A stretch of 64,000 bases of DNA from Alphaproteobacteria bacterium (GTDB lineage Bacteria; Pseudomonadota; Alphaproteobacteria; Caedimonadales; UBA9215): positions 73,910-137,909 of the forward strand of contig CBDBFG010000002.1 in assembly GCA_965204765.1 (NCBI GenBank), read 5' to 3'. Made by a program: the position numbers and the translations under genes. Positions 1,920 to 61,233 of this stretch are shown one piece after another. The notes beneath the pieces are model-generated. The model saw only the letters and a program-made list of their open reading frames with translations. It ran no database searches and was not told the origin of the DNA. Position 1 is the first letter of the stretch; each line of letters starts with the position of its first letter.

Positions 1920-3734
1920 ATGACAAAATTAAGAAATATTGCAATTATCGCCCACGTTGATCACGGTAAAACTACCTTGGTTGATGGATTATTCCAACAA
2001 AGTGGCATGTTTCGAGAAAATCAAGCGGTGCAAACCAGAGCAATGGACTCTAACGACTTGGAACGTGAACGTGGGATTACTATCCTAGCGAAATGTACTT
2101 CTGTACTATGGAACGATGAACGTATTAACATTGTTGACACCCCTGGACATGCTGATTTTGGTGGCGAGGTAGAACGTACCTTATCAATGGTTGATGGAGT
2201 AGTGCTATTAGTCGATGCAGCCGAAGGCCCAATGCCACAAACTAAATTCGTAGTTAGCAAAGCACTTGCAATTGGATTAAAGCCAATAGTAGTAATTAAC
2301 AAAGCTGATAAACCTGACGCACGTGCAGACGAAGTATTAGACGAAGTTTTTGATTTATTTATTAGCCTAGAAGCAACAGATGAACAACTAGACTTTCCAG
2401 TTATTTATGCATCTGCTAAAGAAGGATGGGCGGTAAAAGAACTATCCGATGAGCGTAAAAATCTTAATCCATTATTTGATACCATTATTCAACATATTCA
2501 TGCCCCTCAATTTGATACCAACAAACCGTTTTCTATGCTAGTAACAATGCTGGATGTCGATCCTTATTTGGGTAGAGTGTTAACAGGACGAGTGCAAAGC
2601 GGTAGTGCGAAACTTAATATGCCTGTACATGCATTATCCTTAGAGGATGAAAAAGTTGAAAATGCAAAATTATCTAAGCTATTGGCTTATCGTGGCCTTA
2701 CCAGAGAAGCTGTAGAAGAAGTACATGCTGGGGATATCGTCGCGATTGCCGGCCTAGCCAAGGCAACCGTTGCACAAACTATATGTGACCCGGAAATAAT
2801 GCAATCGATAAAAGCACAACCAATAGACCCGCCTACTCTGTCGATGACTTTTACGGTCAATGATTCTCCATTATCCGGCCAAGACGGTAAAAAAGTAACC
2901 AGTCGTTTAATATACGATCGTTTAATGAGCGAAGCCGAAAGTAATGTATCTATTAGAGTAACTAAAAACACGGGGGATGAATCTTTCGAAGTTAGTGGTC
3001 GAGGAGAATTACAACTTGGCGTATTAATAGAAAATATGCGCCGTGAAGGATTTGAACTGTCTATCAGTAAACCACAAGTTGTCTACCAAGAAAAAAATGG
3101 TAAAAAGCTTGAACCAATAGAAGAAGTTGTAATTGATGTAGATGAAGAATTTTCCGGAGTTATCATAGAAAGCCTTGGTATACGTAGAGCAGAAATGACA
3201 GATATGTCTCCGATGATTGGTGGTAAAACCAGATTGAAATTTCACGCACCATCGCGTGGTTTAATCGGATATCAAAGCCAATTTATGACCGAAACTAGAG
3301 GCACTGGAATAATGACCAGAATTTTTAGTCATTATGCTGAATTCAAAGGAAATATTGAAAAACACAGAAATGGCGTACTAATCTCTAATGGACAAGGTAA
3401 AGCTGTCGGTTACGCTCTATTTAATCTTGAAGATCGCGGTATATTTTTTATCGAACCTGGCTCTGAAGTTTATCAAGGAATGATCATAGGAGAACACAAC
3501 AGAGGAAACGACCTTGAAGTAAATGCCATGAAAGCAAAACAACTTAGCAATGTTAGAGCATCGGGTAAAGATGATGCTATAAAATTACCGACACCAAGAA
3601 AAATGTCTTTGGAACAAGCATTAACCTATATAGATAACGATGAATTGGTTGAAGTAACCCCGAATAATATCCGGCTGCGCAAAAGATATTTAGATCCTAA
3701 TGAAAGAAAAAGAGCTACCAAAAACAACTCGTAG
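1920..3734 (+). CDS. typA: translational GTPase TypA/BipA
   Basis: G1 motif [28 protein letters not shown], and a full-length 604-aa EF-G-like architecture. Confidence 0.95.
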
Positions 3735-5158: not shown

Positions 5159-5233
5159 GGGTGCGTAGCTCAGCGGGAGAGCGCTATGTTGACATCGTAG
5201 AGGTCGCTGGTTCAATCCCAGCCGTACCCACCA
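5159..5233 (+). tRNA. tRNA-Val (anticodon GAC)
   Basis: Hand-folded cloverleaf: acceptor GGGTGCG/CGTACCC (one G-T pair), anticodon loop TTGACAT, T-loop GGTTCAATCC, encoded 3' CCA. Confidence 0.9.
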
Positions 5234-26388: not shown

Positions 26389-27156
26389 TTATACAGGCCT
26401 ATGCCTCTCACCTACTAGCTGTTCATCTATATGGTTCTTTTTTGATTCCTCATTAATAATAGAATGAGGATTATCGTGCTCCTTAGGGGCGCGCAACACA
26501 TACCCTCTACCCCATACGGTCTCTATATAATTCTTGCCATCAAGATTATCAGCTAATTTTTTGCGTAATTTACAGATAAATACATCTATTATCTTGAATT
26601 CGGGCTCTTCCATACCACCATACAAATGGTTAAGAAACACATCCTTGGATAAAGTAGAACCTTTTCTAACAGCAAGCAGCTCAAGAATGGCATACTCACG
26701 CCCTGTTAACCTAATAGGAACACCTTTGGCCTCTATTGTTTTAGTATTCAAATCTATTTTTAACTGACCCACGGTAATCGAAGAGTTAGAATGACCTTGA
26801 GCCCTACGGATAATGGCCCTAACCCTAGCAACCAATTCTTCTTTGTTAAATGGTTTTGTCAAATAATCATCTGCTCCAAAACCTAAACCCTTTATTTTAT
26901 CATCTATATCTGACAAGCCAGACAGAATTAAAACCGGAGTAGAAATTCTTACAGCACGCAATCTACGTAAAATTTCATATCCATCAATATCAGGTAACAT
27001 TAAATCCAAAATAATAAGATCATACTCGTAATGACGCGCAACTTCTAAGCCATCTTCACCAATAGAACAGGTATCACAGACAAAACCCTCTGTCTTCAGC
27101 GACAATTGAATTGTTTTTGCCGTCGCTTGATCATCTTCAATAACTAAAACTCTCAT
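26389..27156 (-). CDS. ctrA: cell-cycle response regulator CtrA (OmpR family)
   Basis: Near-colinear with Caulobacter CtrA as I recall it: MRVLxIEDD, ILDLxLPD, [14 protein letters not shown], [28 protein letters not shown], [13 protein letters not shown]. Confidence 0.9.
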
Positions 27157-32108: not shown

Positions 32109-32645
32109 TCATATTTTACCTAATATGGCACTCATATCCTTTGATTTACTACCTCTAGATGATCCAAATTCAAAGGAATAAGCATCTTTTAAACAAGATC
32201 CAAATATTCCAGCAATAGTCGAAATAATCCCTACCGCCTCACCTGGCAATTCTGACTTGTAATGCGCCAATGCAACTAAACATGCTAATAAACCTGCGGC
32301 AGCGGCCAATACCATCACATCTGCTCTAACATTATATTTACCAGAATTAATAAAACTAATATCCCTTGCTCTAGCATTCTGTATATCTTGCAAGTAATTT
32401 ACTTCTATTTCTTTTTCTAAAGACAAAACCTCTGTTTGAAAACGCAATAATAACTTAGGATCTGTTTGTAAAACTTTTACGGCCTCACCTGGATCAGAAC
32501 TACCAGAAACTTTTTTCGCAATTTCTATTAAACTTTTGGCAATCTTATGCTGATCAGCAATATTTGATCTGTTTACCCCAAACCACTTTGCGATCGACGG
32601 AACCAAATCTGCTAAGGAACTTGCAATCTTTATAAATGACATCAT
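32109..32645 (-). CDS. holin-like membrane protein (resembles the 3TM GTA-release holin family)
   Basis: Soluble N-terminal half, the motif QDIQNARAR, then hydrophobic helices (VMVLAAAAGLLACLVAL, AVGIISTIAGIFG). Sits directly after the hydrolase gene. Confidence 0.5.
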   Translation of the reverse strand: MMSFIKIASSLADLVPSIAKWFGVNRSNIADQHKIAKSLIEIAKKVSGSSDPGEAVKVLQTDPKLLLRFQTEVLSLEKEIEVNYLQDIQNARARDISFINSGKYNVRADVMVLAAAAGLLACLVALAHYKSELPGEAVGIISTIAGIFGSCLKDAYSFEFGSSRGSKSKDMSAILGKI

Positions 32646-32680
32646 TGTATCCTATATGATTTATATCTTATGTATTATAT

Positions 32681-33121
32681 CTATTGGTAAAATACATGAT
32701 TACCTATCTCCAACTGATATTTCTTACCATTTGACCATTCTGGGAATTTAGACATTTTTTTACTATGATAATTAATGGAACCACCTGTAAGATCAGGCCA
32801 TTGATCAGTTAACACTTTTTCGGCCACATGCAAACAAATATCAAATATCTTATCGTCCCCCTTTTTGACATTACTAATAATTGCATAATTGGGATCTCTG
32901 GGATTCCAACACGAAAATTGATAAGGTTTTCTACATACCTCTTGTACTGTTGTGCCATACCATTTTTTCTTACTCTTGACCCTATTCATAATAACATTAG
33001 CAACTGAGATAAGAGAAGATAAACCACCATTCTTCTGATAATACTCTCCTCGTGATTCACCGTATATAGTACGCGCCATTAATTCTTTTTCTATAGCACT
33101 ATGTTTATTGTCTCTTGTCAT
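32681..33121 (-). CDS. SleB-type cell wall hydrolase (Hydrolase_2 family)
   Basis: ARTIYGESRGE...VANVIMNR...YQFSCWNP motifs characteristic of SleB-like phage and spore-cortex lytic enzymes. Confidence 0.85.
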   Translation of the reverse strand: MTRDNKHSAIEKELMARTIYGESRGEYYQKNGGLSSLISVANVIMNRVKSKKKWYGTTVQEVCRKPYQFSCWNPRDPNYAIISNVKKGDDKIFDICLHVAEKVLTDQWPDLTGGSINYHSKKMSKFPEWSNGKKYQLEIGNHVFYQ

Positions 33122-33266
33122 TCTTCCCCTCTGTTTTAATTAAATATAGCTTTTATTTTCATTACTGCCGTAAAATTATAAATTACTATACGACCATCCA
33201 TATATGCTTCTCTCAAATTATTATTGAAGCTATAGTGCAGGTATCATCATGTAAAAATCCTAAATT

Positions 33267-33629
33267 TTACAATTCCAACATAACAACACAATTAGTTAAA
33301 TCATCATCAAAATGAACTCCGCTTATATGGCTAGTTCTGCAGTAATATATTGTCTTATTTATTGTACACAGATCATACACTTCATACTGTTTATTACTTT
33401 GCCAAACTCCTGTTGGATTAAAAGTTAACATAGGCATCTCTGCCCGATAAATCTCATCACCAGCATGATTTTTAAATACCAACTCTACACCCTCAAGACT
33501 AATTGCAGATAAAGTATTGATACTTTCTCCTCCCTCTAATGAATTTAATCTACTATCTAATTCACGAAAATTATTATCAATTTCAACGATAGATAATGGA
33601 CTACCCTTTTCTTGCCTATAAATGATCAT
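33267..33629 (-). CDS. mini fibre/receptor-binding-like protein (fibre N-motif + CBM5/12-like C-terminus)
   Basis: N-terminus GSPLSIVEIDNNFRELD resembles the anchor motif of many phage fibres. The C-terminus WQSNKQYEVYDLCTINKTIYYCRTSHIS aligns to the CBM5/12 pattern W-x5-Y-x3-(D/Q)-L-x-T-x-N-x-x-x-Y-x-C-x3-H-x-S. Confidence 0.45.
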   Translation of the reverse strand: MIIYRQEKGSPLSIVEIDNNFRELDSRLNSLEGGESINTLSAISLEGVELVFKNHAGDEIYRAEMPMLTFNPTGVWQSNKQYEVYDLCTINKTIYYCRTSHISGVHFDDDLTNCVVMLEL

Positions 33630-33749
33630 GAGTATCTCTCCCTATGTGCAAATTAATCAAATTACGAAAATACCAATTAACAGAAATGTTATAAATAACC
33701 ATGTACTGAATTAATCAAAAACGATCTATAAAATAATACGAAAGTATGA

Positions 33750-34625
33750 CTACTTTTCTGCGATAAAATTTATTAATAATTGCCTTTTAACACGATTCAC
33801 CACCTTATAACCATTAGAGACATATCTTCTGTTATCATGACTCATTATTGTAATTTTCCCAGAATCTACATCTTCCCCTAATGAGGTAATATTTGGTTCC
33901 ATAATGTCTATCATTGTATAACAACAATCATTTACCATATGGCTAGACTCTACTTCTATACCGTGCTTTTGTGTCCAATTATGAGAAGTAAATAATAACG
34001 ATGTTTTCTCATTTTCAATGTTTGGATAGCACAAGCAATATGATTGAATACATTTGTTTAAATCTAGATTGCCACCTAATACACCACCCATAGGTATTAA
34101 TGGTGTAGAATCTTTGTAAACTTTACTAGATAAGGAACAAATTGTATTCAATCTACCATCACCCTCATCTATTTCATCTTTAAAAGAAATCTGGTCTAAT
34201 TCAGGAAGAATAAAATCTTTCTCATACAATATTGCAGGAATACCAAAATCTTTACTATTTTCTATACTTGTTAAAAACCCATTATTATTTTTATAACATT
34301 TATTAGCAAAAATTATTGTTAATCCAGAATAACCGTGCCTGATATTATAAGATTCAGAATCAGCAATACTAGTAGAGGCATACGCCATACCCTTCTGGTA
34401 TTGAAAAGTTATATTTCCACATCGATCTATTAAGGATGACTTAGGCACAATATCCGCCGACACAATAAACTGTTGCATACCAGAATCTAACTCAATATCT
34501 AGCAAAACATTCTTTGAACTCTGAGTATCTAAATCACGACGTTTATATTTTTTACTACCAAGATATGATAACGAGTCTACTGTAACAGTGGTATACTGAC
34601 CATTTAAGTAATTAAGTATATTCAT
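33750..34625 (-). CDS. hypothetical phage-cluster protein (291 aa)
   Basis: Abuts the upstream 575-aa ORF (4-nt gap) and is co-oriented with it. No motif recognised. Confidence 0.4.
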   Translation of the reverse strand: MNILNYLNGQYTTVTVDSLSYLGSKKYKRRDLDTQSSKNVLLDIELDSGMQQFIVSADIVPKSSLIDRCGNITFQYQKGMAYASTSIADSESYNIRHGYSGLTIIFANKCYKNNNGFLTSIENSKDFGIPAILYEKDFILPELDQISFKDEIDEGDGRLNTICSLSSKVYKDSTPLIPMGGVLGGNLDLNKCIQSYCLCYPNIENEKTSLLFTSHNWTQKHGIEVESSHMVNDCCYTMIDIMEPNITSLGEDVDSGKITIMSHDNRRYVSNGYKVVNRVKRQLLINFIAEK

Positions 34626-34628
34626 GCA

Positions 34629-36356
34629 TTAGCCATTATTGAGCAATTCTATTTGTTTTGGAGGATAATACTTTTCTGGAACACTGATATTAATCTGATC
34701 TTTTAATAAAGACCTACTATGAATTTTCTTTAAAGAAATTTTTACTCTAGTTTTACATTGCTGCATAACCTTGGGCAAATTATTTACAATGCCATTACAT
34801 GATACACTATCAATGTATTCTTCTTGCTCATCAGCATGATACTGCAAATTTATATCCTCTACTATATCAGATGCCAATAACCTCTCTGGATACATAACAT
34901 ACTCCTTATCCTCACAAGATCTGTAATCCAGATATCGTACACCAGCCTGCGTAGATAATAACTTATCCCCTAAGCTATAATCATTGCCAAACGCATTATC
35001 TTCGGCATAACGATTACCTTCAAAAAAATATTGCTGTCGATCACTTCCTATTGCAGAAGCAATAGTTATATATGCCAAGTTTATACCATTATTGGCTTTA
35101 AAGTTTATCTTCTTTATTTTTCCAACAACACAGCCTCCAGGTATCCTTTTATCTCTTATTTTAATCGTACTATCACAATCTAACGCAATTGCTACGTCCC
35201 AAGGACAACAAAAACTAATCTCTACACACCGCGAACTAAATGCCAAATATGCCTTTGCTATGTCCATTGCTCTATCCACACATTTTTTACCTTCATCAGT
35301 AATAAAAAAACTACCTTTTTTCTGAGTAAAAGACTGTGAATCCACTATATCATCAACACTATAAAGTTTAATATTTAATACCTTGGTTTTGCTGGGGCTA
35401 TATTGAAAATCTTGCACTCCACTTTGTAAGGTAAAGTTAACAGTTTCTGACCTTGGTTGTATATATTCCCAACCCAATTTTAAATAAGGACGAAAAGAGC
35501 GTTTCTTTAAACTTATAGTTTTTGTAGAATGCGATAATGAATTATATTCATCACACATGTTATCAAAACGACTAATAGTAATTTTTTTCTCCTCTAAAGA
35601 GGAAGATATTTCAGTAAGATCAGATTGTAATATCTGGTAGCCATTATTATAATTGTTCTCTATTTTCCACCAATTTTCTAATAGATTATTCCCTGTATAT
35701 GTTTGGATAACTTGGTTGTGAAAATGTGAATGAAAAATGTGATCTAAATTACTTGCCCCATCGTAATATTGCAACCAATTAGCCACTAAATTAACAGTAA
35801 TATTGTTCAAAGGAGAATGTAATATTTTTATTTTTAATGATTTAGGTAAAAAATGCTTACTAATGTCAATCTCTTTACTACCATAAAAAATATTTGATAA
35901 ACCTAATTTATCTTCATATCTATGCCAATATAACAACTCCTCTCGATTATCCAACATATCTTCTATTGCAGGCTGATCTGTATGATAATTATTTGAAAAT
36001 AACTCATTCCATTTTTCATTTTCTTTTAATTGTATCAACAGATTTTGGTAAAGATGCTCTTTCTTTTCGGTGATTGCTAAAAATTCCAATACAACTGTGT
36101 GCTGTTTGATATCAATAGGGCAATTAACTAATCTACCCTTAAAGACAGGATAGATCCTATCTTTATGCTTTGCACTTATAATTGCAAAACTTTCTTTTAC
36201 TAATCCTAATCTCTTGTGCTTAATTGTAATTTGTGCATAAGGAATTAAACCCTCTTCTTCCAAAATATTAATAGCAAATATTTCTTCGTCATATCGACAA
36301 TGAACATTCTGATCAAATGCTTCATCCGCAGCAACCCAAGCAAAATAAAATATCAT
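34629..36356 (-). CDS. hypothetical phage-cluster protein (575 aa)
   Basis: Largest ORF of the cluster, co-oriented. No motif recognised. Too short and not repeat- or coiled-coil-like enough to be a tape measure. Confidence 0.4.
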   Translation of the reverse strand: MIFYFAWVAADEAFDQNVHCRYDEEIFAINILEEEGLIPYAQITIKHKRLGLVKESFAIISAKHKDRIYPVFKGRLVNCPIDIKQHTVVLEFLAITEKKEHLYQNLLIQLKENEKWNELFSNNYHTDQPAIEDMLDNREELLYWHRYEDKLGLSNIFYGSKEIDISKHFLPKSLKIKILHSPLNNITVNLVANWLQYYDGASNLDHIFHSHFHNQVIQTYTGNNLLENWWKIENNYNNGYQILQSDLTEISSSLEEKKITISRFDNMCDEYNSLSHSTKTISLKKRSFRPYLKLGWEYIQPRSETVNFTLQSGVQDFQYSPSKTKVLNIKLYSVDDIVDSQSFTQKKGSFFITDEGKKCVDRAMDIAKAYLAFSSRCVEISFCCPWDVAIALDCDSTIKIRDKRIPGGCVVGKIKKINFKANNGINLAYITIASAIGSDRQQYFFEGNRYAEDNAFGNDYSLGDKLLSTQAGVRYLDYRSCEDKEYVMYPERLLASDIVEDINLQYHADEQEEYIDSVSCNGIVNNLPKVMQQCKTRVKISLKKIHSRSLLKDQINISVPEKYYPPKQIELLNNG

Positions 36357-36387
36357 AAAACACCCAAAATTTAAGATAATATATATT

Positions 36388-36912
36388 TTAAATCTCTTCT
36401 AAAGATATAGACCAGTTATTGGATTTTCCCCATTCACGCTCCAAGATAGCGAAATTTATTATCCTCATATATAATATAGGAGAATAAATTGCTATTAAAT
36501 CATCCGTCATAGAAGAGTTAATTTTTATAGTATTATCACCAACTATCTCATAATCTACGCTATGCAAATTTTCATTTTGTAACACGAGGGACTTTTTGAC
36601 AAAAGGCTTACTCAGGCTATATATATCACCATCCAAATTACTTACATCAATTATTTCGGATATCTTACTGACACAATATACTTTAACCGCCTTACCTATC
36701 CAAGACCGAGTAAAACCAGGCACATTTCTATCACTACACCTTATAGTCGAACTGTACTTACCTATCACTTCATTATTCACTAAGTAACACAGTTCTCCAT
36801 TCACGGTCCTAATAAATTGCCCACTATCAATAGGAGATAAAGTTTGCTCTATTTCTCGACAAGACAATAAAGGAAAGGTAACTCCCTCTATACATAATTG
36901 TGATTCATTCAT
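36388..36912 (-). CDS. hypothetical phage-cluster protein (174 aa)
   Basis: ATG at 36912 (MNESQLCIEGVTFPLL...) preferred over the GTG at 36939. No confident family match. Confidence 0.4.
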   Translation of the reverse strand: MNESQLCIEGVTFPLLSCREIEQTLSPIDSGQFIRTVNGELCYLVNNEVIGKYSSTIRCSDRNVPGFTRSWIGKAVKVYCVSKISEIIDVSNLDGDIYSLSKPFVKKSLVLQNENLHSVDYEIVGDNTIKINSSMTDDLIAIYSPILYMRIINFAILEREWGKSNNWSISLEEI

Positions 36913-36920
36913 TTTCTTCT

Positions 36921-37064
36921 CTAAACAAATAAAGACCACCTAGGCAAATTGCAATATTTACTCATTGCTCGCCTACGCAATTGATTTTCCAAGATTTCCG
37001 AAACTATTTCATCCTGATTATAGTAATATTCATCATCTAATAATTTTTCCTTATCATGTTGCAT
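36921..37064 (-). CDS. 47-aa ORF inside the phage cluster (below the ORF-track cutoff)
   Basis: Strong SD AGGAGGAAGCA before the ATG. MQHDKEKLLDDEYYYNQDEIVSEILENQLRRRAMSKYCNLPRWSLFV. Fills the gap between the g8-like and 174-aa ORFs. Confidence 0.35.
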   Translation of the reverse strand: MQHDKEKLLDDEYYYNQDEIVSEILENQLRRRAMSKYCNLPRWSLFV

Positions 37065-37078
37065 TGCTTCCTCCTACT

Positions 37079-37447
37079 CTAATATTTATTCACTAAAAAA
37101 TTAATATTTATAATACTAGTCAATTTACTATCATCTTTACTGAGACCACATGACTGATACTTAAAAACCAAGTCATCATGGTAAACATGGTAAAATTCTA
37201 AACAGTCTATAATTTGTTGTTTAATCGATAAAACCTCAGCCATACCTTTATAATTACTGCATATCTTAAGACAGAATGGTAAAACTGTATTCTGGATATC
37301 GCCAGGAATAAAAACCAGAAACGGCCTAGACAATTCCAAATTCATCACAGTCAATAGTTTTGTATTTTTTAATAATTGATTATATGCAAATACATGTTTT
37401 AAGCGTTGAAAAACTATTTTTTCCATCATCACACTATCAATCCTCAT
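37079..37447 (-). CDS. RcGTA g8-like / DUF3168-like head-tail joining protein (tentative)
   Basis: The call rests on position and size (122 aa, overlapping the gp7 stop). Sequence similarity is weak by eye. Confidence 0.4.
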   Translation of the reverse strand: MRIDSVMMEKIVFQRLKHVFAYNQLLKNTKLLTVMNLELSRPFLVFIPGDIQNTVLPFCLKICSNYKGMAEVLSIKQQIIDCLEFYHVYHDDLVFKYQSCGLSKDDSKLTSIININFLVNKY

Positions 37448-37787
37448 ATCCTATAAATGTCACATAGCTATTATTATTCGAGACATTTTCACTCACCACT
37501 TTTACAATAGTATTTTTATATTCTATTTTAGCATTGTATTGAATGTTTGATCCTTGTTGTGTAGATATTTCAAAAACTCTCTTATGCCTTGTAATAAAGC
37601 CAGAACTATTCTTAATAAAATTATACTTCTGAATATCATGAGAAGAGATAATCCGCACAGATGCCCAAATTTCCTGTTTATCTGACCATTGCAATTCATA
37701 ACCACCAAAATCATCTTCATAGTAGCACGGACTATATACGCGTATCCTATCATCCATACGCTGTTGATTATATTTCATGAATATCAT
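37437..37787 (-). CDS. phage head-tail adaptor (SPP1 gp16 / RcGTA g7-like)
   Basis: 116 aa. DDRIRVYSP...DDFGGYELQWSDKQEIWASVRIISSHD fits the head-tail adaptor pattern (R-x-i-x...G-x...W...vWA-x-v-x-p-x-s). Confidence 0.7.
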   Translation of the reverse strand: MIFMKYNQQRMDDRIRVYSPCYYEDDFGGYELQWSDKQEIWASVRIISSHDIQKYNFIKNSSGFITRHKRVFEISTQQGSNIQYNAKIEYKNTIVKVVSENVSNNNSYVTFIGYED

Positions 37788-37926
37788 CCTCAGTTCTAAA
37801 ATAATAATTATCTGATTTCGATGTTTACGAACAGGCCATTATAAAAACCAATGCAGGGAATACTTAATATTATTGGATGACAATATAATGTCTGATAGAA
37901 TCTAGCAAATTTTCACTATTAAAATT

Positions 37927-38535
37927 CTACCCTAAACGATAGATTTTATAAGGCTTAATAAGTGTAACCACGCTATTATCTATTAACATACTAACGTTAT
38001 CATTTACCGCTGGTCTATTATTATATAAATGAGACAAAATTAACAGCACTGCCTGTTTAAGAGGTGCTGGTAACGTTTCTGAGTCATATCCTGCAATAAA
38101 CTCCAACTTGATAGATCCAGAAGTACAGCTATTTACTAGAGTATTATCACCAAAATGTATTTTTGCCGTACTACCTGACTCATCTACCCTAAAGTTTTCA
38201 ATATCCTTTTCATCATGATTTACAATCAGAGCTGGTAATGATGTTAATTCTATGAATGGTGATCGTGGAAATTCAATTCCTGCTACACCCTTAGATTTTA
38301 TACCACTAAGATACTTTTGATCACTTTTTGCTAATGCAAAACCACAATTAATTGTAAGCATCCATTTTTGTCGCAACAACGATCTAGAAGTATAAGATTC
38401 TATAGACACGCGCGCTGATTGAATCAAGGTATTTATCAATTCATTTTCTACATCATGATCAATTCTTAAAAAACTTTTTGCCTCTTCAAGGCTTACAGGT
38501 TCTTTATCTACTGTACTTATTCTTTTTAGCGCCAT
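37927..38535 (-). CDS. phage gp6-like head-tail connector (phiE125 gp8 / RcGTA g6-like)
   Basis: VSLEEAKSFLRIDHDVENELINTLIQSARVSIESYTSRSLLRQKW and C-terminal LPAPLKQAVLLILSHLYNNR are the classic signatures of this family. Confidence 0.8.
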   Translation of the reverse strand: MALKRISTVDKEPVSLEEAKSFLRIDHDVENELINTLIQSARVSIESYTSRSLLRQKWMLTINCGFALAKSDQKYLSGIKSKGVAGIEFPRSPFIELTSLPALIVNHDEKDIENFRVDESGSTAKIHFGDNTLVNSCTSGSIKLEFIAGYDSETLPAPLKQAVLLILSHLYNNRPAVNDNVSMLIDNSVVTLIKPYKIYRLG

Positions 38536-38840
38536 CTATTCCTCATAATCAATACATAATTATCAATTTTGCCTATATCTATTGATGTTTAAACTAAAAT
38601 AATCCCTAGACTTCCTCTAATTTTTAAAATAACGATCATAAAAACAAACAAACATCACAAAAATATATGTAAAATTTTACTGAATATAACTTTAATATTC
38701 ACCATACAATAACTTTGTATATAAATAGTTAAAACTATAATATTTGATTTATAATCAAGTAAATATAGCAATATTGACAATATTAATCCCATATATTATT
38801 TGCAGCTCTAATGCATACACAAATCTAAACAACGATTTTA

Positions 38841-39944
38841 TTATGCAACTTTTAAGATACTCAAAGCATCAAAATTTATTACATCTCCACCCACTCTTTT
38901 AGTAGTATAAAACTCAACATGCGGTTTTGAACTATAAGGATCACGTAAGACATTCATCCCTTGACGATCAACAATTTGATAAGATTTAGCAAAATTACCA
39001 AAAACTATAGCCAAATTATCACTGCTCTCCAATGATGGCATATCATCGCATATTTCAACATTATAACCTAAAATAGTAGATGGATTACCAGCTCCAACAC
39101 TAGGTTGCCATAAATATCTACCATCATTATCTTGTAATTTCCTTATCTGTGCCAAAGTAGATCTAGACATTAACCAATTCGCATTATGCAAGTACTCGGT
39201 CTTAATCTTAGCATACATATCAATCAATTTATCTGCTAAATTATCATGATCTGCATCATAAGCGACACTAGCAAATTTACCCCATTCTGCATTTTCCACT
39301 GTATCATAACGCAAAATACCCTTAGGTTTATTGTTGCCATCACCATGCAAAAAAGCATGATTTTCTGTCTCTGCCATTTTGCATGCTATTTCCATAGCAA
39401 TCCATTCTTCAACATTAATTGCCGCATCATCCAATAATTTTTGTGTTGCTTTTGGTTTGGCATATATCTCATGTGCTGGAATAACCTTTTTACGCAATTC
39501 TGGTGTATCAGTTTCATCACGAGCATCATTTTCGGCACTCCACCCAACATCAAGATTTTTTCTATGCAATAAAATATCCACAGATGAACTTGATATTTGC
39601 ATTACACTAGATAGCTTACGCACCGGACTTAATCCATCTATATTTTGTTGGATACTATTTCTAATAATTTGGGGTATCAAATAACCACCATCACTATCTG
39701 TACCTGTGGATAGACTTTTCTTATCAAACGAGTGCATCTGATCTGTATTGCCAGATCTAACATAATGCACAAAATAGTTTTTATACTCGACCTCTTGTGA
39801 CCTATCTTCGATTATGTTACCAAGCTCTGGCCTCTTATTAGACAAATGCAATTGCTCTACTTCTTTTATTCGTTGCTCATTTTGAGTTTTATATTCTTGA
39901 AAAGACTGTACCAAGGTATCCACTGTTTTATTTAATGATGACAT
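38841..39944 (-). CDS. HK97-family major capsid protein
   Basis: N-terminal coiled delta/scaffold-like region, DSDGGYLIPQ, ENHAFLHGDGNNKPKGIL, LRDPYSSKPHVEFYTTKRVGG. AGGAG SD before the ATG. Confidence 0.92.
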   Translation of the reverse strand: MSSLNKTVDTLVQSFQEYKTQNEQRIKEVEQLHLSNKRPELGNIIEDRSQEVEYKNYFVHYVRSGNTDQMHSFDKKSLSTGTDSDGGYLIPQIIRNSIQQNIDGLSPVRKLSSVMQISSSSVDILLHRKNLDVGWSAENDARDETDTPELRKKVIPAHEIYAKPKATQKLLDDAAINVEEWIAMEIACKMAETENHAFLHGDGNNKPKGILRYDTVENAEWGKFASVAYDADHDNLADKLIDMYAKIKTEYLHNANWLMSRSTLAQIRKLQDNDGRYLWQPSVGAGNPSTILGYNVEICDDMPSLESSDNLAIVFGNFAKSYQIVDRQGMNVLRDPYSSKPHVEFYTTKRVGGDVINFDALSILKVA

Positions 39945-39961
39945 ATTCTGCTCCTATAATT

Positions 39962-40440
39962 TTATATATTTATATTTGATATTTTGGCTTTATTATTGGC
40001 GGGAAAGGTTACTAAAGAAATTTCTACTAAATCCACTTCTGTTAATAAACGTATACAAGATTCATTACTATTTTTAACAGCCTGTACTACTTATAACCAA
40101 TTGATAACCCATCTATTGCTTTTGATTTCACAAGAGTATATGCTTCTTGTGCTTTTAATAAATCCAGTAATAATCTACCCTTTACTTTTAGCCCTTTATG
40201 GTCTTCTTCGATACTTAACCAAGTACCAATTATATGTTCAGGATTATGTTGCCATAACATCTTAGGCATTTGCTGACATAATTTCCACGATGCAATGGTT
40301 TGCGCAAAAGCACCTCTTACTACTCGATCATTCTGCTGATCAACTTCATCATAAATACTTGCATACCCTTCAAATATTCCTGAATTATCGATACTTTTAT
40401 TTAAACTCACATAGCGTTCTGCACGTTTGAATTCTAGCAT
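39962..40440 (-). pseudogene. HK97-family prohead protease interrupted by a frameshift
   Basis: Frame A (40440-40087) encodes 117 aa ending ...AIDGLSIGYK then TAG. The -1 frame from 40090 continues VVQAVKNSNESCIRLLTEVDLVEISLVTFPANNKAKISNINI to the stop at 39962, i.e. the conserved C-terminal L-x-E-V/I-S-L-V-x-x-P-A-N motif. Confidence 0.8.
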
Positions 40441-41642
40441 TTATCTAAACTATCTCCTCCTACTATTGGTTGATATCCAACTGCTTTTCTTTTTTCATTT
40501 ATTGTTAAAAAATCAGCCTTGGCAATCTTGGCCCATGCTTCCTCTCGTTTAGAAGAAAGTGCTGGTATAGAATCAATATCATAATTTAATCTAATATCTT
40601 CTCCAAACCACTGTGCTAACCAAGCGTTTAACTCATCAGTGACTAAATCTAACAAAGGCAAAATATTATCTTCCCATAAATGTAATCGAGCTTCTTTATA
40701 ATTTGCAAAAGTTGCATCCCCTAAAATACCTATTAAAATTGGAGGGACATTAAATGCCTGAGAAATTTCTCTAGAACTCAAATTTTTACCAGAAATAAAA
40801 TCTAAATCTTTAGGAGACAATCCCATCTCTTGCCAAACAAAATCACCATCAAGTATCATTACGCGACCTGAATTTTTTTCTCCTTCAATGATATTTTTCA
40901 AATCTGTTCTTAATTCAGTTAGTTGCTCTTTGGTTAATGATTCTTTGTATGCACCAGAGGATTTATTGACAATTAACGCTCCAGAAGGCCTACCACCATT
41001 TTGTAACAAAGATAAATTATGACTAGCCACCGCATTATGCTGATCTATTGAACAAGCAGCTGCTTCAATAGGACTCATACCATACCAATCATTTAAGGGA
41101 TTAAATAATTTAATGTGCAATACTCTAGATTTACCACTAGCAAAATTCGCTGGTAACAATTTTGTTCTACCATTGACATTATATTCATATCCAGAAACTA
41201 CACCATTTGAACTTGGCACTATTTTTACTCTATCAGGGCGCAGAACATACATTTCTTTAGGCAAACTAGCAATCTCAGATAGTTCAATATAACTATTACC
41301 CGCCAATAATAAATAAGCAAAAATAGATTCCATAAATGCACTACCAGCCTGATTGAAAGCTGGTCGATGCAATAAATCTAATATTGGATGATTGGTTAGC
41401 TCTTGCTCTCCCTTATACAATCTCCATGGCACACTAGCAGCACTTCTTGCAATCAGATTAACACATCGATAAACTATGACATTTTTATTATATCCATGCT
41501 TAGTTAGTGATTCATAATTTCTAGGAGTCCATATAGCTTTACCAACATTATTATACGCCACCATTGAACCAACCTGACTGGCTTTTACATCTTGATGATT
41601 GTTATTTTTTTTACGTGTAAATAATTGCGCTAAAATGCTCAT
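40434..41642 (-). CDS. HK97-family phage portal protein
   Basis: 402 aa. NDWYGMSPIEAAACSIDQHNAVASHNLSLLQNGGRPSGAL and later ILGD...NYKEARLHLWEDNILP fit the HK97 portal family. Overlaps the protease start. Confidence 0.9.
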   Translation of the reverse strand: MSILAQLFTRKKNNNHQDVKASQVGSMVAYNNVGKAIWTPRNYESLTKHGYNKNVIVYRCVNLIARSAASVPWRLYKGEQELTNHPILDLLHRPAFNQAGSAFMESIFAYLLLAGNSYIELSEIASLPKEMYVLRPDRVKIVPSSNGVVSGYEYNVNGRTKLLPANFASGKSRVLHIKLFNPLNDWYGMSPIEAAACSIDQHNAVASHNLSLLQNGGRPSGALIVNKSSGAYKESLTKEQLTELRTDLKNIIEGEKNSGRVMILDGDFVWQEMGLSPKDLDFISGKNLSSREISQAFNVPPILIGILGDATFANYKEARLHLWEDNILPLLDLVTDELNAWLAQWFGEDIRLNYDIDSIPALSSKREEAWAKIAKADFLTINEKRKAVGYQPIVGGDSLDKC

Positions 41643-41656
41643 AATTTCCTCACAAA

Positions 41657-41678
41657 AAGGCCCGCTATAGCGGGCCTT
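41657..41678 (-). terminator. GC-rich hairpin + U-tract 13 nt upstream of the portal ATG (minus-strand sense)
   Basis: GGCCCGC-tata-GCGGGCC. On the minus strand it is followed by TTTTTGTGAGGAAATTATG (the portal SD and start). Confidence 0.4.
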
Positions 41679-56117: not shown

Positions 56118-57437
56118 TTACTCAATAGAGAATATCGCAGGAATATTTTTCACAGTTTTAGGGAGTAATAATTCTGTCACTGCCCAAACCAACGCATCTA
56201 ATCTATCCGGTGATTTTGCAGTTTTGCCAGGAACATAGTCAATCATTTGTTGCTCTAATATAGCTAAATCTCCATTGGACAAATGCTTTACTTTATTTCT
56301 TTGATATAGGCATAATACTGGCTCTGCTCGCAAAACTTTACCACGACTGGCATATACCCCTTTAAATGGAATACTATGGTCTATTGAGCGAATAATACTT
56401 TCAACTAAATCGCCGCCCTGATTATTTTCTGCTACTATACAATCCGCATTATAATTATGATATTCATGGATTGCTTTTCTGGCCCATTCTGCTGGACCAT
56501 ATCTACCACTTATATCCTTTAGCACATACACCGTATCACCATTATCCTTACCGGCCACTATAATACCAGTCTCATCACTTTTCACACCAGAAGTAACCGC
56601 AGGATCAATAGCGATGATTATTCGTGATAACTCAGGTATCTCTTTATTAATCACTTGTGCTTGATTGATTAAAGTGCGAGACCACAATGCCCCGGTATTA
56701 TCATTTAATATTTTCCCTTCAATTTCTTGTTGCCCCAAATTAGTACCAGAATATTTATTTTTTAAATAAGCAATAAACTGCGGAGATAAATTTTCTTGGT
56801 TATCAAATGTTGATCCTCGTGTAACATATACATCACCACTTTTTTCAGCCTCCAACAACTCTTGCAGCAATTTATTAGGCCTTGGAGTTGTCGTAATTAT
56901 TGCCCTGGGACATTTGCCTAATCTTAGGGAAAAATTCAACTGATCCCATACCGCTTTATCATTATTAAACTTAGCTAATTCATCTATCCAAGCAAAATCA
57001 AATTGTGGCCCACGTAATTGTTCATAATTTTCCGCACTAAATATTGTTGCAATACTACCATTAGACCAGGTTAAACGACGTTTAGATGGTTCAAATACTG
57101 GCCTTTCCTTGTCTGGGTACACTGCCAATAATCCACTCGAACCTTCGATCATTACATCGCGCACTTCTGTCTCACTTTGTCCGATTAAAGCAATTCTCTT
57201 GATAGCGTTAGTACTAACGAATTTTTTTATTGTTTCCGCCCCAGTCCTGGTCTTGCCAAACCCTCTACCGGCTAAAATCAGCCACACTCTCCAATTACCT
57301 GGCGGTATTTTCTGGCTAGGACGCGCGTATTTATCCCAATTATATTTTGCAATTAATTCTTGTTTAATATTGATTAGCAATGATATTTTACTACGTAATA
57401 TATGAAGTAATTTTCTATAATTCTTTGATCTTTTCAT
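56118..57437 (-). CDS. phage terminase large subunit, RcGTA g2-like
   Basis: WRVWLILAGRGFGKTRTGAETIKKF matches the Walker-A region of GTA-type TerL (W-x-x-W-L-x-x-G-G-R-G-x-G-K-T-R-x-G-A-E). Walker B-like FAWIDE. C-terminal nuclease region (IIAIDPA...DETGI...CIVAENNQGGD...DRLDALVWA). Confidence 0.88.
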   Translation of the reverse strand: MKRSKNYRKLLHILRSKISLLINIKQELIAKYNWDKYARPSQKIPPGNWRVWLILAGRGFGKTRTGAETIKKFVSTNAIKRIALIGQSETEVRDVMIEGSSGLLAVYPDKERPVFEPSKRRLTWSNGSIATIFSAENYEQLRGPQFDFAWIDELAKFNNDKAVWDQLNFSLRLGKCPRAIITTTPRPNKLLQELLEAEKSGDVYVTRGSTFDNQENLSPQFIAYLKNKYSGTNLGQQEIEGKILNDNTGALWSRTLINQAQVINKEIPELSRIIIAIDPAVTSGVKSDETGIIVAGKDNGDTVYVLKDISGRYGPAEWARKAIHEYHNYNADCIVAENNQGGDLVESIIRSIDHSIPFKGVYASRGKVLRAEPVLCLYQRNKVKHLSNGDLAILEQQMIDYVPGKTAKSPDRLDALVWAVTELLLPKTVKNIPAIFSIE

Positions 57438-57619: not shown

Positions 57620-57696
57620 TGGTGGACCCTGTAGGACTCGAACCTACGACATCACCGTTATGAGCGGTGTGTTCTAACCAACTGAACTAAGGGTCC
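57620..57696 (-). tRNA. tRNA with CAT anticodon (Met, or lysidine-type Ile2)
   Basis: Cloverleaf: acceptor GGACCCT/AGGGTCC, anticodon loop CTCATAA, T-loop GGTTCGAGTCC, encoded CCA. The acceptor GGaCCCU resembles E. coli tRNA-Ile2 (GGCCCCU) as I recall it. It is not initiator-like. Confidence 0.9.
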
Positions 57697-58288: not shown

Positions 58289-60712
58289 TTAATGAGCAAC
58301 AATTACGTCATCTTTCTTACCTGTGGGATGATGCTCACGATCATTACTCCAGATAATAGATTTTGGCTGTTTTACTAATGCCGTTCTAATTACATCACCA
58401 ACATAAGAGACCGGCACTATGCGCAAACCATCTGTCACGTTCGCGGGAATTTCCACTAAATCTTTCTCGTTTTCTTTTGGTATAATTACTGTTTTAATCC
58501 CTGATCTATGCGCAGCTAATAATTTCTCTTTTAACCCACCGATAGGCAACACCCTTCCTCTTAATGTAATTTCACCAGTCATTGCCACATCTTTTTTTAC
58601 CGGGATACCGGTCAACATAGATACTATTGAAGTACAAATCGCAATACCAGCAGACGGACCATCTTTTGGCGTTGCCCCTTCAGGTACATGAATATGAATA
58701 TCATTTTTTTCAAATATTACCGGTGTAATGCCAAAATTGGTAGCGTTGGATTTAACGAAACTAGCCGCAGCTTGTACGGACTCTTGCATCACCTCACCCA
58801 ATTTTCCAGTGATAGTCATTTTTCCTTTACCAGCAACCATCAAAGCCTCTATAAATAAAATATCCCCTCCTACCTCAGTCCACGCCAGACCAGTAGTTGT
58901 TCCAACCATATCATTACTTTCTTGTTCGCCGTAAAGATATTTACGTACCCCCAGATACTTACTGACGGTACGTTCAGTAATTTTTATAGTCTTCTTCTTT
59001 TTATCACTAATAATATCTTTCAGTGCTTTTCGTAATAATTTTGATATTTCACGCTCAAGTGCACGCACCCCAGCTTCTCTTGTATAATATCTAATTACCT
59101 CACGTAACGCCTTGTCAGATATACTCCATTCACTCTCTGCTAGACCGTGTTTTTCTTTTTGCTTAGGAATTAAATGCTTACAAGCTATTTTTACTTTCTC
59201 ATCTTCTGTATAACCAGATAATCTAATAATCTCCATACGATCAAGCAAAGGTTGCGCCATATTCATACTATTAGCAGTAGTTACAAACATCACATCCGAC
59301 AGATTATAATCAACCTCAAGATAATGGTCATTAAATTTATCATTTTGCTCTGGATCAAGAACTTCTAGTAATGCCGAAGATGGGTCTCCACGCCAATCGG
59401 AACCTAACTTATCGATTTCATCTAATAAGAACAAAGGATTCGAAGAACCAGCTTTTTTCATCCCTTGTACTAACTTACCTGGCATAGAACCTATATAAGT
59501 CCGGCGATGACCACGAATTTCTGACTCATCACTTACCCCACCTAATGCCACTCTCACAAACTTTCTACCAGTAGCCTTGGCAATAGATTCACCTAATGAT
59601 GTTTTTCCAACACCAGGAGGACCAACTAAACATAAGATACTACCATTTACTTTTCCGACTCTTGACTGTACAGCTAGGTGCTCAATGATACGTTCTTTTA
59701 CCTTTTCAAGGCCATAATGATCTTTATTAAGTGTCTTTTCAGCCTCAAAAATATCTTTTTTTATTTTTGTGCTATTGCTCCATGGAATACCTAATAACCA
59801 ATCAAGATACCCTCGTACTACTGTTGCTTCAGATGACATGGGGTTCATAGCCTTTAATTTTTTCAATTCCCCTTCAGCCTTCTCTCTTGCTTCCTTGGTC
59901 AATTTTAATTTTTTTATCTTTGTGAATATCTCGTCTGCTTCATTCACTAAATCTGTTTCAGTACCTAATTCTTTTTGAATAGCCTTGATTTGTTCATTCA
60001 GATAGTACTCACGTTGAGATTTTTCCATTTGATGTTTTACTCGGCTTCTAATGCGCTTTTCAGCTTCTAGAATACCAATTTCTGCCTCCATAAAGCCGCA
60101 TATCGCCTCTAATCTGTCATTGATGTCTATAATCTCTAACAAATGCTGTTTTTTTTCGACTTTAATCAATAAATGAGCCGCTAATGTATCAGCAAGACCA
60201 CTAGGATTAGTTATCTTCATAACATTAGTTAATGCTTCTTGTGGAATCTTTGGGTTTAGCTTCAAGTATTTTTCAAACAATTTATTGGCTGTTCTAACAT
60301 GCGCTTCTGATTTGTTACGCACAACATTATCATTTATCGGGGAAAGCACAGTTACATCAGCCCTAAAACAATCCTTGGATAAATTTAAATCAACAATCTT
60401 CGCACGTTTTTCACCTTCAACTAATACTTTTACAGTACCATCGGGTAGTTTCAGCATCTGCAGTACCTGCGCCACTGTACCCATCTTATATAAGTCATCG
60501 TTTTTTGGCGTTTCTAACGATGGATCTTTTTGTGTAAGCAAAAGTATTTTTTGATTGCTACTCATAGCGTTTTTCAAAGACTGTATAGATTGCTCTCTTC
60601 CTACAAAGAGAGGAACTATCATATTAGGAAAAACAACAATATCACGCAAAGGCAACACTGGTAAATTACTTAAGTGGCTAGATCCACTTGGTGTACTGAC
60701 TATTTTGTCCAA
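58289..60712 (-). CDS. lon: ATP-dependent Lon protease
   Basis: LPVLPLRDIVVFP N-domain, Walker A GPPGVGKTS, catalytic PKDGPSAG. Likely TTG start at 60712, preceded by AAGGAG. The ORF track extends to a TTG at 60772. Confidence 0.93.
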   Translation of the reverse strand: MDKIVSTPSGSSHLSNLPVLPLRDIVVFPNMIVPLFVGREQSIQSLKNAMSSNQKILLLTQKDPSLETPKNDDLYKMGTVAQVLQMLKLPDGTVKVLVEGEKRAKIVDLNLSKDCFRADVTVLSPINDNVVRNKSEAHVRTANKLFEKYLKLNPKIPQEALTNVMKITNPSGLADTLAAHLLIKVEKKQHLLEIIDINDRLEAICGFMEAEIGILEAEKRIRSRVKHQMEKSQREYYLNEQIKAIQKELGTETDLVNEADEIFTKIKKLKLTKEAREKAEGELKKLKAMNPMSSEATVVRGYLDWLLGIPWSNSTKIKKDIFEAEKTLNKDHYGLEKVKERIIEHLAVQSRVGKVNGSILCLVGPPGVGKTSLGESIAKATGRKFVRVALGGVSDESEIRGHRRTYIGSMPGKLVQGMKKAGSSNPLFLLDEIDKLGSDWRGDPSSALLEVLDPEQNDKFNDHYLEVDYNLSDVMFVTTANSMNMAQPLLDRMEIIRLSGYTEDEKVKIACKHLIPKQKEKHGLAESEWSISDKALREVIRYYTREAGVRALEREISKLLRKALKDIISDKKKKTIKITERTVSKYLGVRKYLYGEQESNDMVGTTTGLAWTEVGGDILFIEALMVAGKGKMTITGKLGEVMQESVQAAASFVKSNATNFGITPVIFEKNDIHIHVPEGATPKDGPSAGIAICTSIVSMLTGIPVKKDVAMTGEITLRGRVLPIGGLKEKLLAAHRSGIKTVIIPKENEKDLVEIPANVTDGLRIVPVSYVGDVIRTALVKQPKSIIWSNDREHHPTGKKDDVIVAH

Positions 60713-61233
60713 AATTATCTCCTTACTATTGGCAATCAAAAGATGTCGAACAAGACTACAATAAAACAACAAAAACGAAAAGCAACAATATACATCACTT
60801 GCAACTTTTTATATTTTAAAATACTTCAAATTGTAAAATAACCAAAACAAATACAACGTTTCATCTACTTTTTGTAATATAACATTAACAAGAAAATTTT
60901 TATCTAAAAAAATAGCAATTAACATAAATATAGTTTCACATTGACAAATGACTATAAAAACTGATAGGATTCGCCTAGAAAATTATTGTACCGCAATGTA
61001 ATAGGGAGGAGCTCTTACATAACCCCTCCCCATATTGAGGAAACAGTAAGTGGTTGGTTAAAGACAGGGAAAAAACCAACCACAGTAATTTCAAAGGCAA
61101 CACACACCGTTTAAAACTACAAAATCAAACAGATAGTTAAGTTTTCTATTGGAACTTGAACCACTGCTATGTATAATTTATTACATATACTTTTTTGCGT
61201 GTCAAGAAAAAAAATGGAGTTATTTACAATAAA

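Follow-up and report, generated by a model that had tools for sequence, protein, structure and literature searches.

The closest described counterparts of the locus reported here are clusters of gene transfer agent (GTA) capsid and portal genes with ‘missing tail components’, common in Holosporaceae and Rickettsiales, for which transcripts were detected and the head genes were found to be under purifying selection (George et al. 2022, Genome Biol Evol 14:evac099, PMC9254644). We analysed a 64,000-nt stretch of contig CBDBFG010000002.1 from an alphaproteobacterium (‘the window’), in which 13 co-oriented open reading frames (ORFs) occupy the minus strand from 32109 to 41642, the position given to them in an original prediction made from the sequence alone. 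Because such clusters have been described by George et al. (2022), the finding is of a known kind, and the result for this window alone is mostly confirmatory. Common to both are a Holosporales host, the series portal-protease-capsid-adaptor-stopper(-terminator), a terminase encoded elsewhere, purifying selection, no detectable tail tube or tape measure, and unknown genes after the adaptor. The window differs in that its protease is frameshifted and, above all, in what stands downstream: in the published account these genes have no assignment and the structure is said to lack tail components, whereas here they form a conserved seven-gene block with a hub-fold protein, carbohydrate-binding modules of family 5/12 (CBM5/12) and a lysis pair. 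We consider it probable that the cluster represents, in Holosporales, the particle gene set of the alphaproteobacterial Rhodobacter capsulatus GTA (RcGTA) lineage: derived from a phage, inherited vertically and kept by selection, with a head, a neck, a stub tail tip and lysis genes of its own. Holosporales particles have so far been thought of as heads without tails, and the new point is that the ‘unknown’ half of the cluster does not mean that a tail is absent: it consists of a divergent tail tip and a lysis module.

The tail tip is represented chiefly by the 575-aa ORF (34629..36356; minus strand, as are all protein-coding genes of the window given below). By sequence its family has no Pfam, PHROG or PDB match; it comprises 1213 clusters at 50% identity, and a word-index search with the window protein returned a single relative, at 32% identity. 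An AlphaFold2 model built on a 64-sequence alignment reached a pLDDT of 90.5 and a pTM of 0.87, and comparison of this model with the PDB using Foldseek gave 46 matches at E≤1e-3 (best 5e-11), every one of them a hub or central-spike protein. The matches span phages, tailocins, extracellular contractile injection systems (eCIS) and type VI secretion systems, and include the spikes of eCIS and of PVC/AFP, Mu gp44, the MuSo2 tail protein, the pyocin R2 hub, VgrG, T4 gp27, and the siphophage tail tips of 80alpha, Bxb1 and T5. A further 375 matches, Mu gpP and protein D among them, were found in the viral library BFVD (best 1.2e-20). On the strength of the model, the 575-aa ORF is predicted to encode a tail-associated baseplate hub with the gp27/Mu gp44/gpD/VgrG-type fold, alike in that fold to T4 gp27, Mu gp44, P2 gpD, siphophage Tal, VgrG and the eCIS spike, at a sequence identity to known hub proteins of just 5–11%. 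Where it departs from all of these is in its company, for it occurs without a detected tube, sheath or tape measure. The distal half, which had been called non-canonical, is not tail-free, given the hub fold of the 575-aa protein. A separate VgrG-type gene (Phage_GPD, Phage_base_V, Gp5_trimer_C) was observed in Nucleicultrix amoebiphila (L003:18381-20555), 8 kb downstream of the cluster there, and is unrelated in sequence to the cluster hub.

The head and neck genes stand in RcGTA order, g3 to g8. They begin with a portal (g3; 40434..41642; PF04860 7.6e-82, TIGR01537 4.3e-67) and a prohead serine protease (g4), discussed below, followed by an HK97-fold major capsid protein (g5; 38841..39944; PF05065 7.3e-83), for which the RcGTA capsid is the best PDB relative (6TBA, 1e-74). 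The head-tail adaptor, or gp6 connector (g6; 37927..38535), matches PF05135 (1.1e-13), TIGR02215 (8.4e-26) and phrog_40, and its family aligned by hhalign, at 99.9%, to the family found at the g6 position in phages. The stopper, or head-completion protein (g7; 37437..37787), matches PF05521 weakly (6.9e-6), and its family profile matches both the RcGTA stopper Rcc01689 (1.7e-6) and SPP1 gp16. The next protein, divergent and 122 aa in length (37079..37447), has no family match itself; its designation as a g8-type tail-completion protein or terminator is based on its orthologs, 11/17 of which match PF11367 Tail_completion_gp17 (best 5.5e-10), and on comparison of profiles, in which hhalign paired its family, at 96.5%, with the one that occupies the g8 position in capsid-related phages. 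Pfam, TIGR, PDB, ortholog and hhalign evidence thus bears out the calls and the g3-g8 order that had been proposed from portal to g8-like protein. The genes are tightly spaced overall, also as proposed, but gaps exist, the capsid and gp6 genes being 305 nt apart.

The prohead protease had been noted as frameshifted, and the lesion proved to be a true 1-nt frameshift. The N-terminal part (40087..40440; PF04586 3.1e-23, covering profile positions 9-113 of 165) contains the GLSIGY serine motif, and the frame is lost directly after GLSIGYK. The C-terminus missing from the main frame (VVQAV...LLTEVDLVEISLVTFPAN) is encoded by 42 codons in the -1 frame (39962..40090), and it aligns to the C-terminus of the intact ortholog at locus L001. 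Programmed frameshifting was considered and rejected: the site, T TAT AAG TAG, has no slippery heptamer, and every protease ortholog is intact in a single frame (141–207 aa). The frameshift is either a recent inactivating mutation or an assembly error, so that this particular genome may be defective or its assembly may be wrong.

The likeness to RcGTA, whose structure is said to have been solved by Bardy and colleagues in 2020 (PDB 6TBA and related entries), therefore consists in the closest solved capsid, the stopper match, the g3-g8 order and a large terminase (TerL) of T4 type. As far as sequence comparison reaches, homology to RcGTA-type elements extends to g8 and then ends: no sequence match in the cluster was found to the g9 tube, to g10/g10.1, to the g11 tape measure or to g12-g15, and at the level of the g12-g15 baseplate there is a hub-fold protein with no sequence homology and no specific tie to g13. 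RcGTA differs further in the position of TerL, which here is not immediately upstream of the portal, in its CtrA box, for which no counterpart was found here, and in its lysis genes, which are located elsewhere in RcGTA and lie inside the cluster here. TerL, which the originally proposed gene list had missed, is a g2-type protein encoded at 56118..57437 (PF03237 Terminase_6N 1.9e-28; PF17289 Terminase_6C 3.5e-14), and is also matched by a local hidden Markov model (HMM) made from capsid-related phages (5e-18). It lies outside the cluster, on the same strand and 14.5 kb from the portal, among housekeeping genes (tRNA-Met, 57620-57696, and lon, 58289-60772, both on the minus strand); it adjoins the portal solely in more distant relatives, whose portals are at most 50% identical. 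Among phages, Azospirillum phage Cd, an HK97-type temperate siphophage, has a capsid 43% identical to that of the window and a homologous head-neck module. Temperate siphophages of this kind differ in having their own tube, large tape measure, integrase and replication genes, and none has the distal genes described next.

No tube or tape measure was recognised by Pfam, PHROG, NCBIfam, PDB-sequence or local-HMM searches of the cluster, its orthologs and the six-frame translation of the window. Profiles of the 174-aa, 575-aa and 291-aa families each gave 0 matches to PDB sequences, and none of the distal families matched any of 20 gene families downstream of related IMG/VR capsids by hhalign, a comparison in which g6, g7 and g8 served as positive controls; the distal genes were found in no GenBank phage and in 0/79 IMG/VR capsid relatives. 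First after g8 is a conserved 47-aa micro-protein (36921..37064) with a C-terminal ...ALE.YFR..AL.....LPRW motif; orthologs in 14 loci, with dN/dS of 0.07–0.32, indicate that it is a real conserved gene. The position of this ORF is that at which siphophages have chaperone or tape-measure genes. It is followed by a 174-aa protein (36388..36912) that is conserved (42 orthologs, mean column identity 41%, dN/dS 0.04–0.14) and that, by position, may be a distal-tail (Dit) protein or form a tube-like ring. This family has no Pfam, PHROG or PDB match, per-member Pfam and PHROG scans having given nothing consistent, and a single-sequence AlphaFold2 model was poor (pLDDT 40), Foldseek returning nothing on that poor model. 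Beyond the hub, a 291-aa protein (33750..34625) is hypervariable, with an ortholog in 60 loci at just 10–20% identity to the window protein (dN/dS 0.11–0.21) and no family match, a PDB profile search having given 0 hits and per-member Pfam and PHROG scans nothing consistent; it is a candidate receptor-binding or fibre protein. The 120-aa protein that comes next (33267..33629) combines a tail-fibre-like N-terminus, with a weak PHROG tail-collar match, and a CBM5/12-like C-terminus (PF02839), the latter at E=0.012 in the window protein and at 1.9e-8, above cutoff, in the ortholog at L084. The same CBM5/12 module is found inserted in 17/44 hub orthologs.

The last two genes make up the lysis pair. 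The first encodes a SleB-type cell-wall hydrolase (32681..33121; PF07486 1.1e-18), a putative endolysin in which no signal peptide, transmembrane (TM) or hydrophobic segment was found, and the second a 178-aa membrane protein (32109..32645) with a strong TM segment at ~105–130 plus a second hydrophobic helix, matching phrog_1544 over its full length (7e-21). The phrog_1544 family is annotated ‘unknown function’ and has homologs in 148 phage genomes; in two unrelated phage groups, exemplified by the VHML-like Vibrio phage MAR and by Polaromonas phage Tiera, the gene immediately before it encodes an endolysin of GH108 + PG_binding_3 architecture. The phrog_1544 proteins of these Vibrio (VHML-like and other) and Polaromonas phages are thus homologous to the 178-aa protein over its full length and resemble it in standing directly after a muralytic enzyme, although the partner is GH108 there and SleB-type here. 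With the hydrolase and 178-aa genes adjacent in 73/85 loci, the pair fits an endolysin-holin cassette, in keeping with the SleB and holin-like annotations first given to these ORFs, and the 178-aa protein can be regarded as a putative holin-type partner. Its C-terminal 40 residues are nearly invariant across Holosporales, which is unusual for a holin. In seven Holosporales metagenome-assembled genomes (MAGs; L047, L049, L055, L064, L068, L075 and L081), an intact capsid gene is accompanied only by the 178-aa phrog_1544 gene; the capsid is ~322 aa long (PF05065 8e-58), as at L049:1921-2889, where the membrane-protein gene follows at 3129-3665 and the pair sits between ruvB and a thymidine-kinase-like gene. 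These pairs are flanked by housekeeping genes, and no portal, neck, hub or hydrolase gene was found near them.

The window cluster has many relatives, and its gene order is conserved among them. The contig bearing the one word-index relative of the 575-aa ORF has all 13 genes in identical order, its protease being intact and a host EamA transporter gene being inserted on the opposite strand, and supplies an ortholog for each of the 13 window ORFs at only 22–67% protein identity. For the 178-aa ORF there are >1000 relatives at 50–70% identity, the named ones all from Holosporales (Caedibacter, Nucleicultrix, Caedimonas, Paracaedimonas, Bealeia and Odyssella), and a scan of one genome per species detected this terminal gene in 172 genomes. 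Mapping by iterative HMMs yielded 85 loci, and the full order was recovered in dozens of species: portal, protease, capsid, g6, g7, g8-like, (micro-ORF), 174-aa, [EamA, on the opposite strand, in most loci], hub, 291-aa, (120-aa), hydrolase, 178-aa. Among the species with this architecture are Nucleicultrix amoebiphila and Odyssella thessalonicensis. The expectation that an element of this sort would be unusual in such a host was therefore mistaken, given the number of species and full-order loci and the earlier publication of its kind. The description of the host fared better: the bacterium is AT-rich (34% GC), its relatives are intracellular Holosporales, and it is itself a Holosporales bacterium. 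The EamA gene, a host transporter gene between the 174-aa and hub genes (L001:8925-9881, L003:5251-6252 and ~35 further loci), is absent from the window, where a 31-nt gap (36357-36387) occupies its place, as well as from Odyssella (L005/L024) and the MAG L072. Embedded in this way, it marks long vertical inheritance of the cluster. Selection was estimated by the Nei-Gojobori method in eight species pairs, and dN/dS fell between 0.01 and 0.32 in all 13 families, the unassigned ones included. The cluster is under purifying selection and is not decaying; synteny and dN/dS, the comparison proposed at the outset for telling selection from uniform decay, came down on the side of selection.

How such genes might act together can be sketched as follows. 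TerL would fill the capsid through the portal, and g6, g7 and g8 would then seal the filled capsid. In place of a tube and tape measure, a ring of the 174-aa protein, which occupies the Dit position, could bridge g8 and the hub; a trimeric hub would assemble directly on this ring to give a stub tail. The hub might be decorated for target binding by the CBM5/12 protein together with the hypervariable 291-aa protein, and the membrane protein would let the hydrolase reach the wall so that particles could leave the cell. This stub-tailed model is the most economical. What the data show are the hub fold, the identities of the neck proteins, the context of the lysis pair and the action of selection; we infer that the 174-aa protein acts as a ring, how particles assemble, and their cargo, which in a true GTA would be host DNA. 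A fuller version is offered tentatively, being somewhat likelier wrong than right in all its parts: the ‘tail-less’ GTAs of Holosporales would be stub-tailed particles, descended from a siphovirus-derived GTA that lost its tube and tape measure and now carries the 174-aa ring, the hub, the hypervariable 291-aa protein and a CBM5/12 binder directly on the g8 neck ring. Such a particle would resemble a podovirus, target glycans and have a lysis cassette of its own, while the lineage with only capsid and phrog_1544 genes hints at a second, non-packaging use of the shell.

Several points weigh against the view that the cluster encodes a stub-tailed particle of the RcGTA lineage. No particle was seen in >850 endosymbiont cells examined by transmission electron microscopy (George et al. 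2022, PMC9254644), and the protease of this window is frameshifted. The TM-scores behind the hub fold are modest (0.25–0.51 on the query), owing to a different arrangement of the domains, and, with no fold assigned to the 174-aa and 291-aa proteins, a stub tail of ring plus hub is something we infer. Genes for a tube or tape measure could lie in other parts of this genome. The capsid and 178-aa pairs that lack a hydrolase fit poorly with a simple lysis role and leave that role in some doubt. Finally, there is no CtrA box upstream of the cluster: the portal leader contains no TTAA-N7-TTAA motif, and the 12 occurrences in the window, against 9.4 expected, are at chance level, giving no evidence of the CtrA control mentioned at first. 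Taken as a whole, the original observation is confirmed and its interpretation partly supported.

The alternative that survives best, though we think it unlikely, is that the particle has been repurposed and no longer transfers bacterial DNA, serving instead for host interaction or storage, either as a capsid or stub-tailed particle for protein delivery or for binding of eukaryotic or bacterial glycans, or as an encapsulin-like compartment. The small, near-clonal populations of intracellular Holosporales, in which DNA exchange would be of little benefit (George et al. 2022, PMC9254644), are in its favour, as are the chitin- or glycan-binding CBM5/12 modules on distal proteins and the seven reduced genomes retaining only the capsid and phrog_1544 genes, which cannot package DNA through a portal. 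Against this, an intact TerL, a portal and a full neck have been kept in the window and in most relatives under strong purifying selection, and these weigh against repurposing because they are needed only for the packaging and retention of DNA; the lysis cassette, for its part, fits particle release. The matter bears on why the shrinking genomes of obligate intracellular bacteria retain virus-particle genes, and the choice between ‘DNA transfer between symbionts’ and a ‘host-interaction device’ is now more directly testable, since a hub, glycan-binding modules and a lysis pair under purifying selection change the targets for cryo-electron microscopy and proteomics, and amoeba-grown Nucleicultrix and Paracaedibacter carry the same cluster.

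That the cluster is instead a decaying, functionless prophage remnant seems very improbable. The frameshifted protease, the lack of any tube, tape measure, integrase or regulators among the genes found, and the occasional split ORFs of some MAGs (L010, L044 and L048) are what one would expect of a remnant; one would not expect the order of 13 families to be kept across genera at dN/dS of 0.01–0.32, 12/13 window ORFs to be full length relative to their orthologs, or the cluster to persist in strongly reduced genomes (George et al. 2022, PMC9254644).

The surroundings of the cluster are those of an ordinary chromosomal region. GC content in the window ranges from 31 to 38%, the cluster being like its surroundings in composition, and the flanks carry host genes, as had been recognised for the Sel1 protein and O-methyltransferase genes, together with genes for a tricorn-type protease and polA. 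The borders were likewise read correctly: a repeat search there found no bracketing direct (att) repeats, no integrase, replication or regulation module was found, and the only two tRNAs of the window, at 5159 and 57620, are both far from the cluster. Capsid-forming phage-inducible chromosomal islands (cf-PICIs) are capsid-forming satellites with head, neck and packaging genes and without a tube or tape measure. Despite this likeness, a mobile satellite of the cf-PICI type, or an active phage that borrows the tails or replication of a helper, deserves almost no credence here: the integrase, att repeats, tRNA target and replication module of an integrated prophage or cf-PICI are absent from the borders, TerL is unlinked, most relatives carry a host gene inside the cluster, the genes on either side are ordinary chromosomal ones, the cluster has its own hub and lysis genes, and no helper phage genes have been reported in these genomes (George et al. 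2022, PMC9254644).

Two features near the cluster concern regulation. An OmpR-family response regulator is encoded at 26389-27156, ~5 kb from the cluster; over 118 residues, its receiver domain matches that of Brucella CtrA (4qpj) with a score of 153 bits, and in L004, the closest relative, this gene likewise comes after the tricorn protease gene. Judged by this similarity, it may be ctrA. The second is a GC-rich hairpin with a T-run (41657..41678, minus strand), which has a perfect 9-bp stem and precedes the portal ATG by 15 nt, within a region of 32% GC; the upstream neighbour is divergent, so no co-oriented gene is terminated here. Similar hairpins were present upstream of the portal in 15/68 relatives, compared with 6% of coding controls. 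A conserved attenuator was considered and rejected, as only these 15 relatives possess a hairpin and in the closest ones it is the terminator of an upstream tetratricopeptide repeat (TPR) gene; the one before the portal here has probably been kept as a terminator or insulator.

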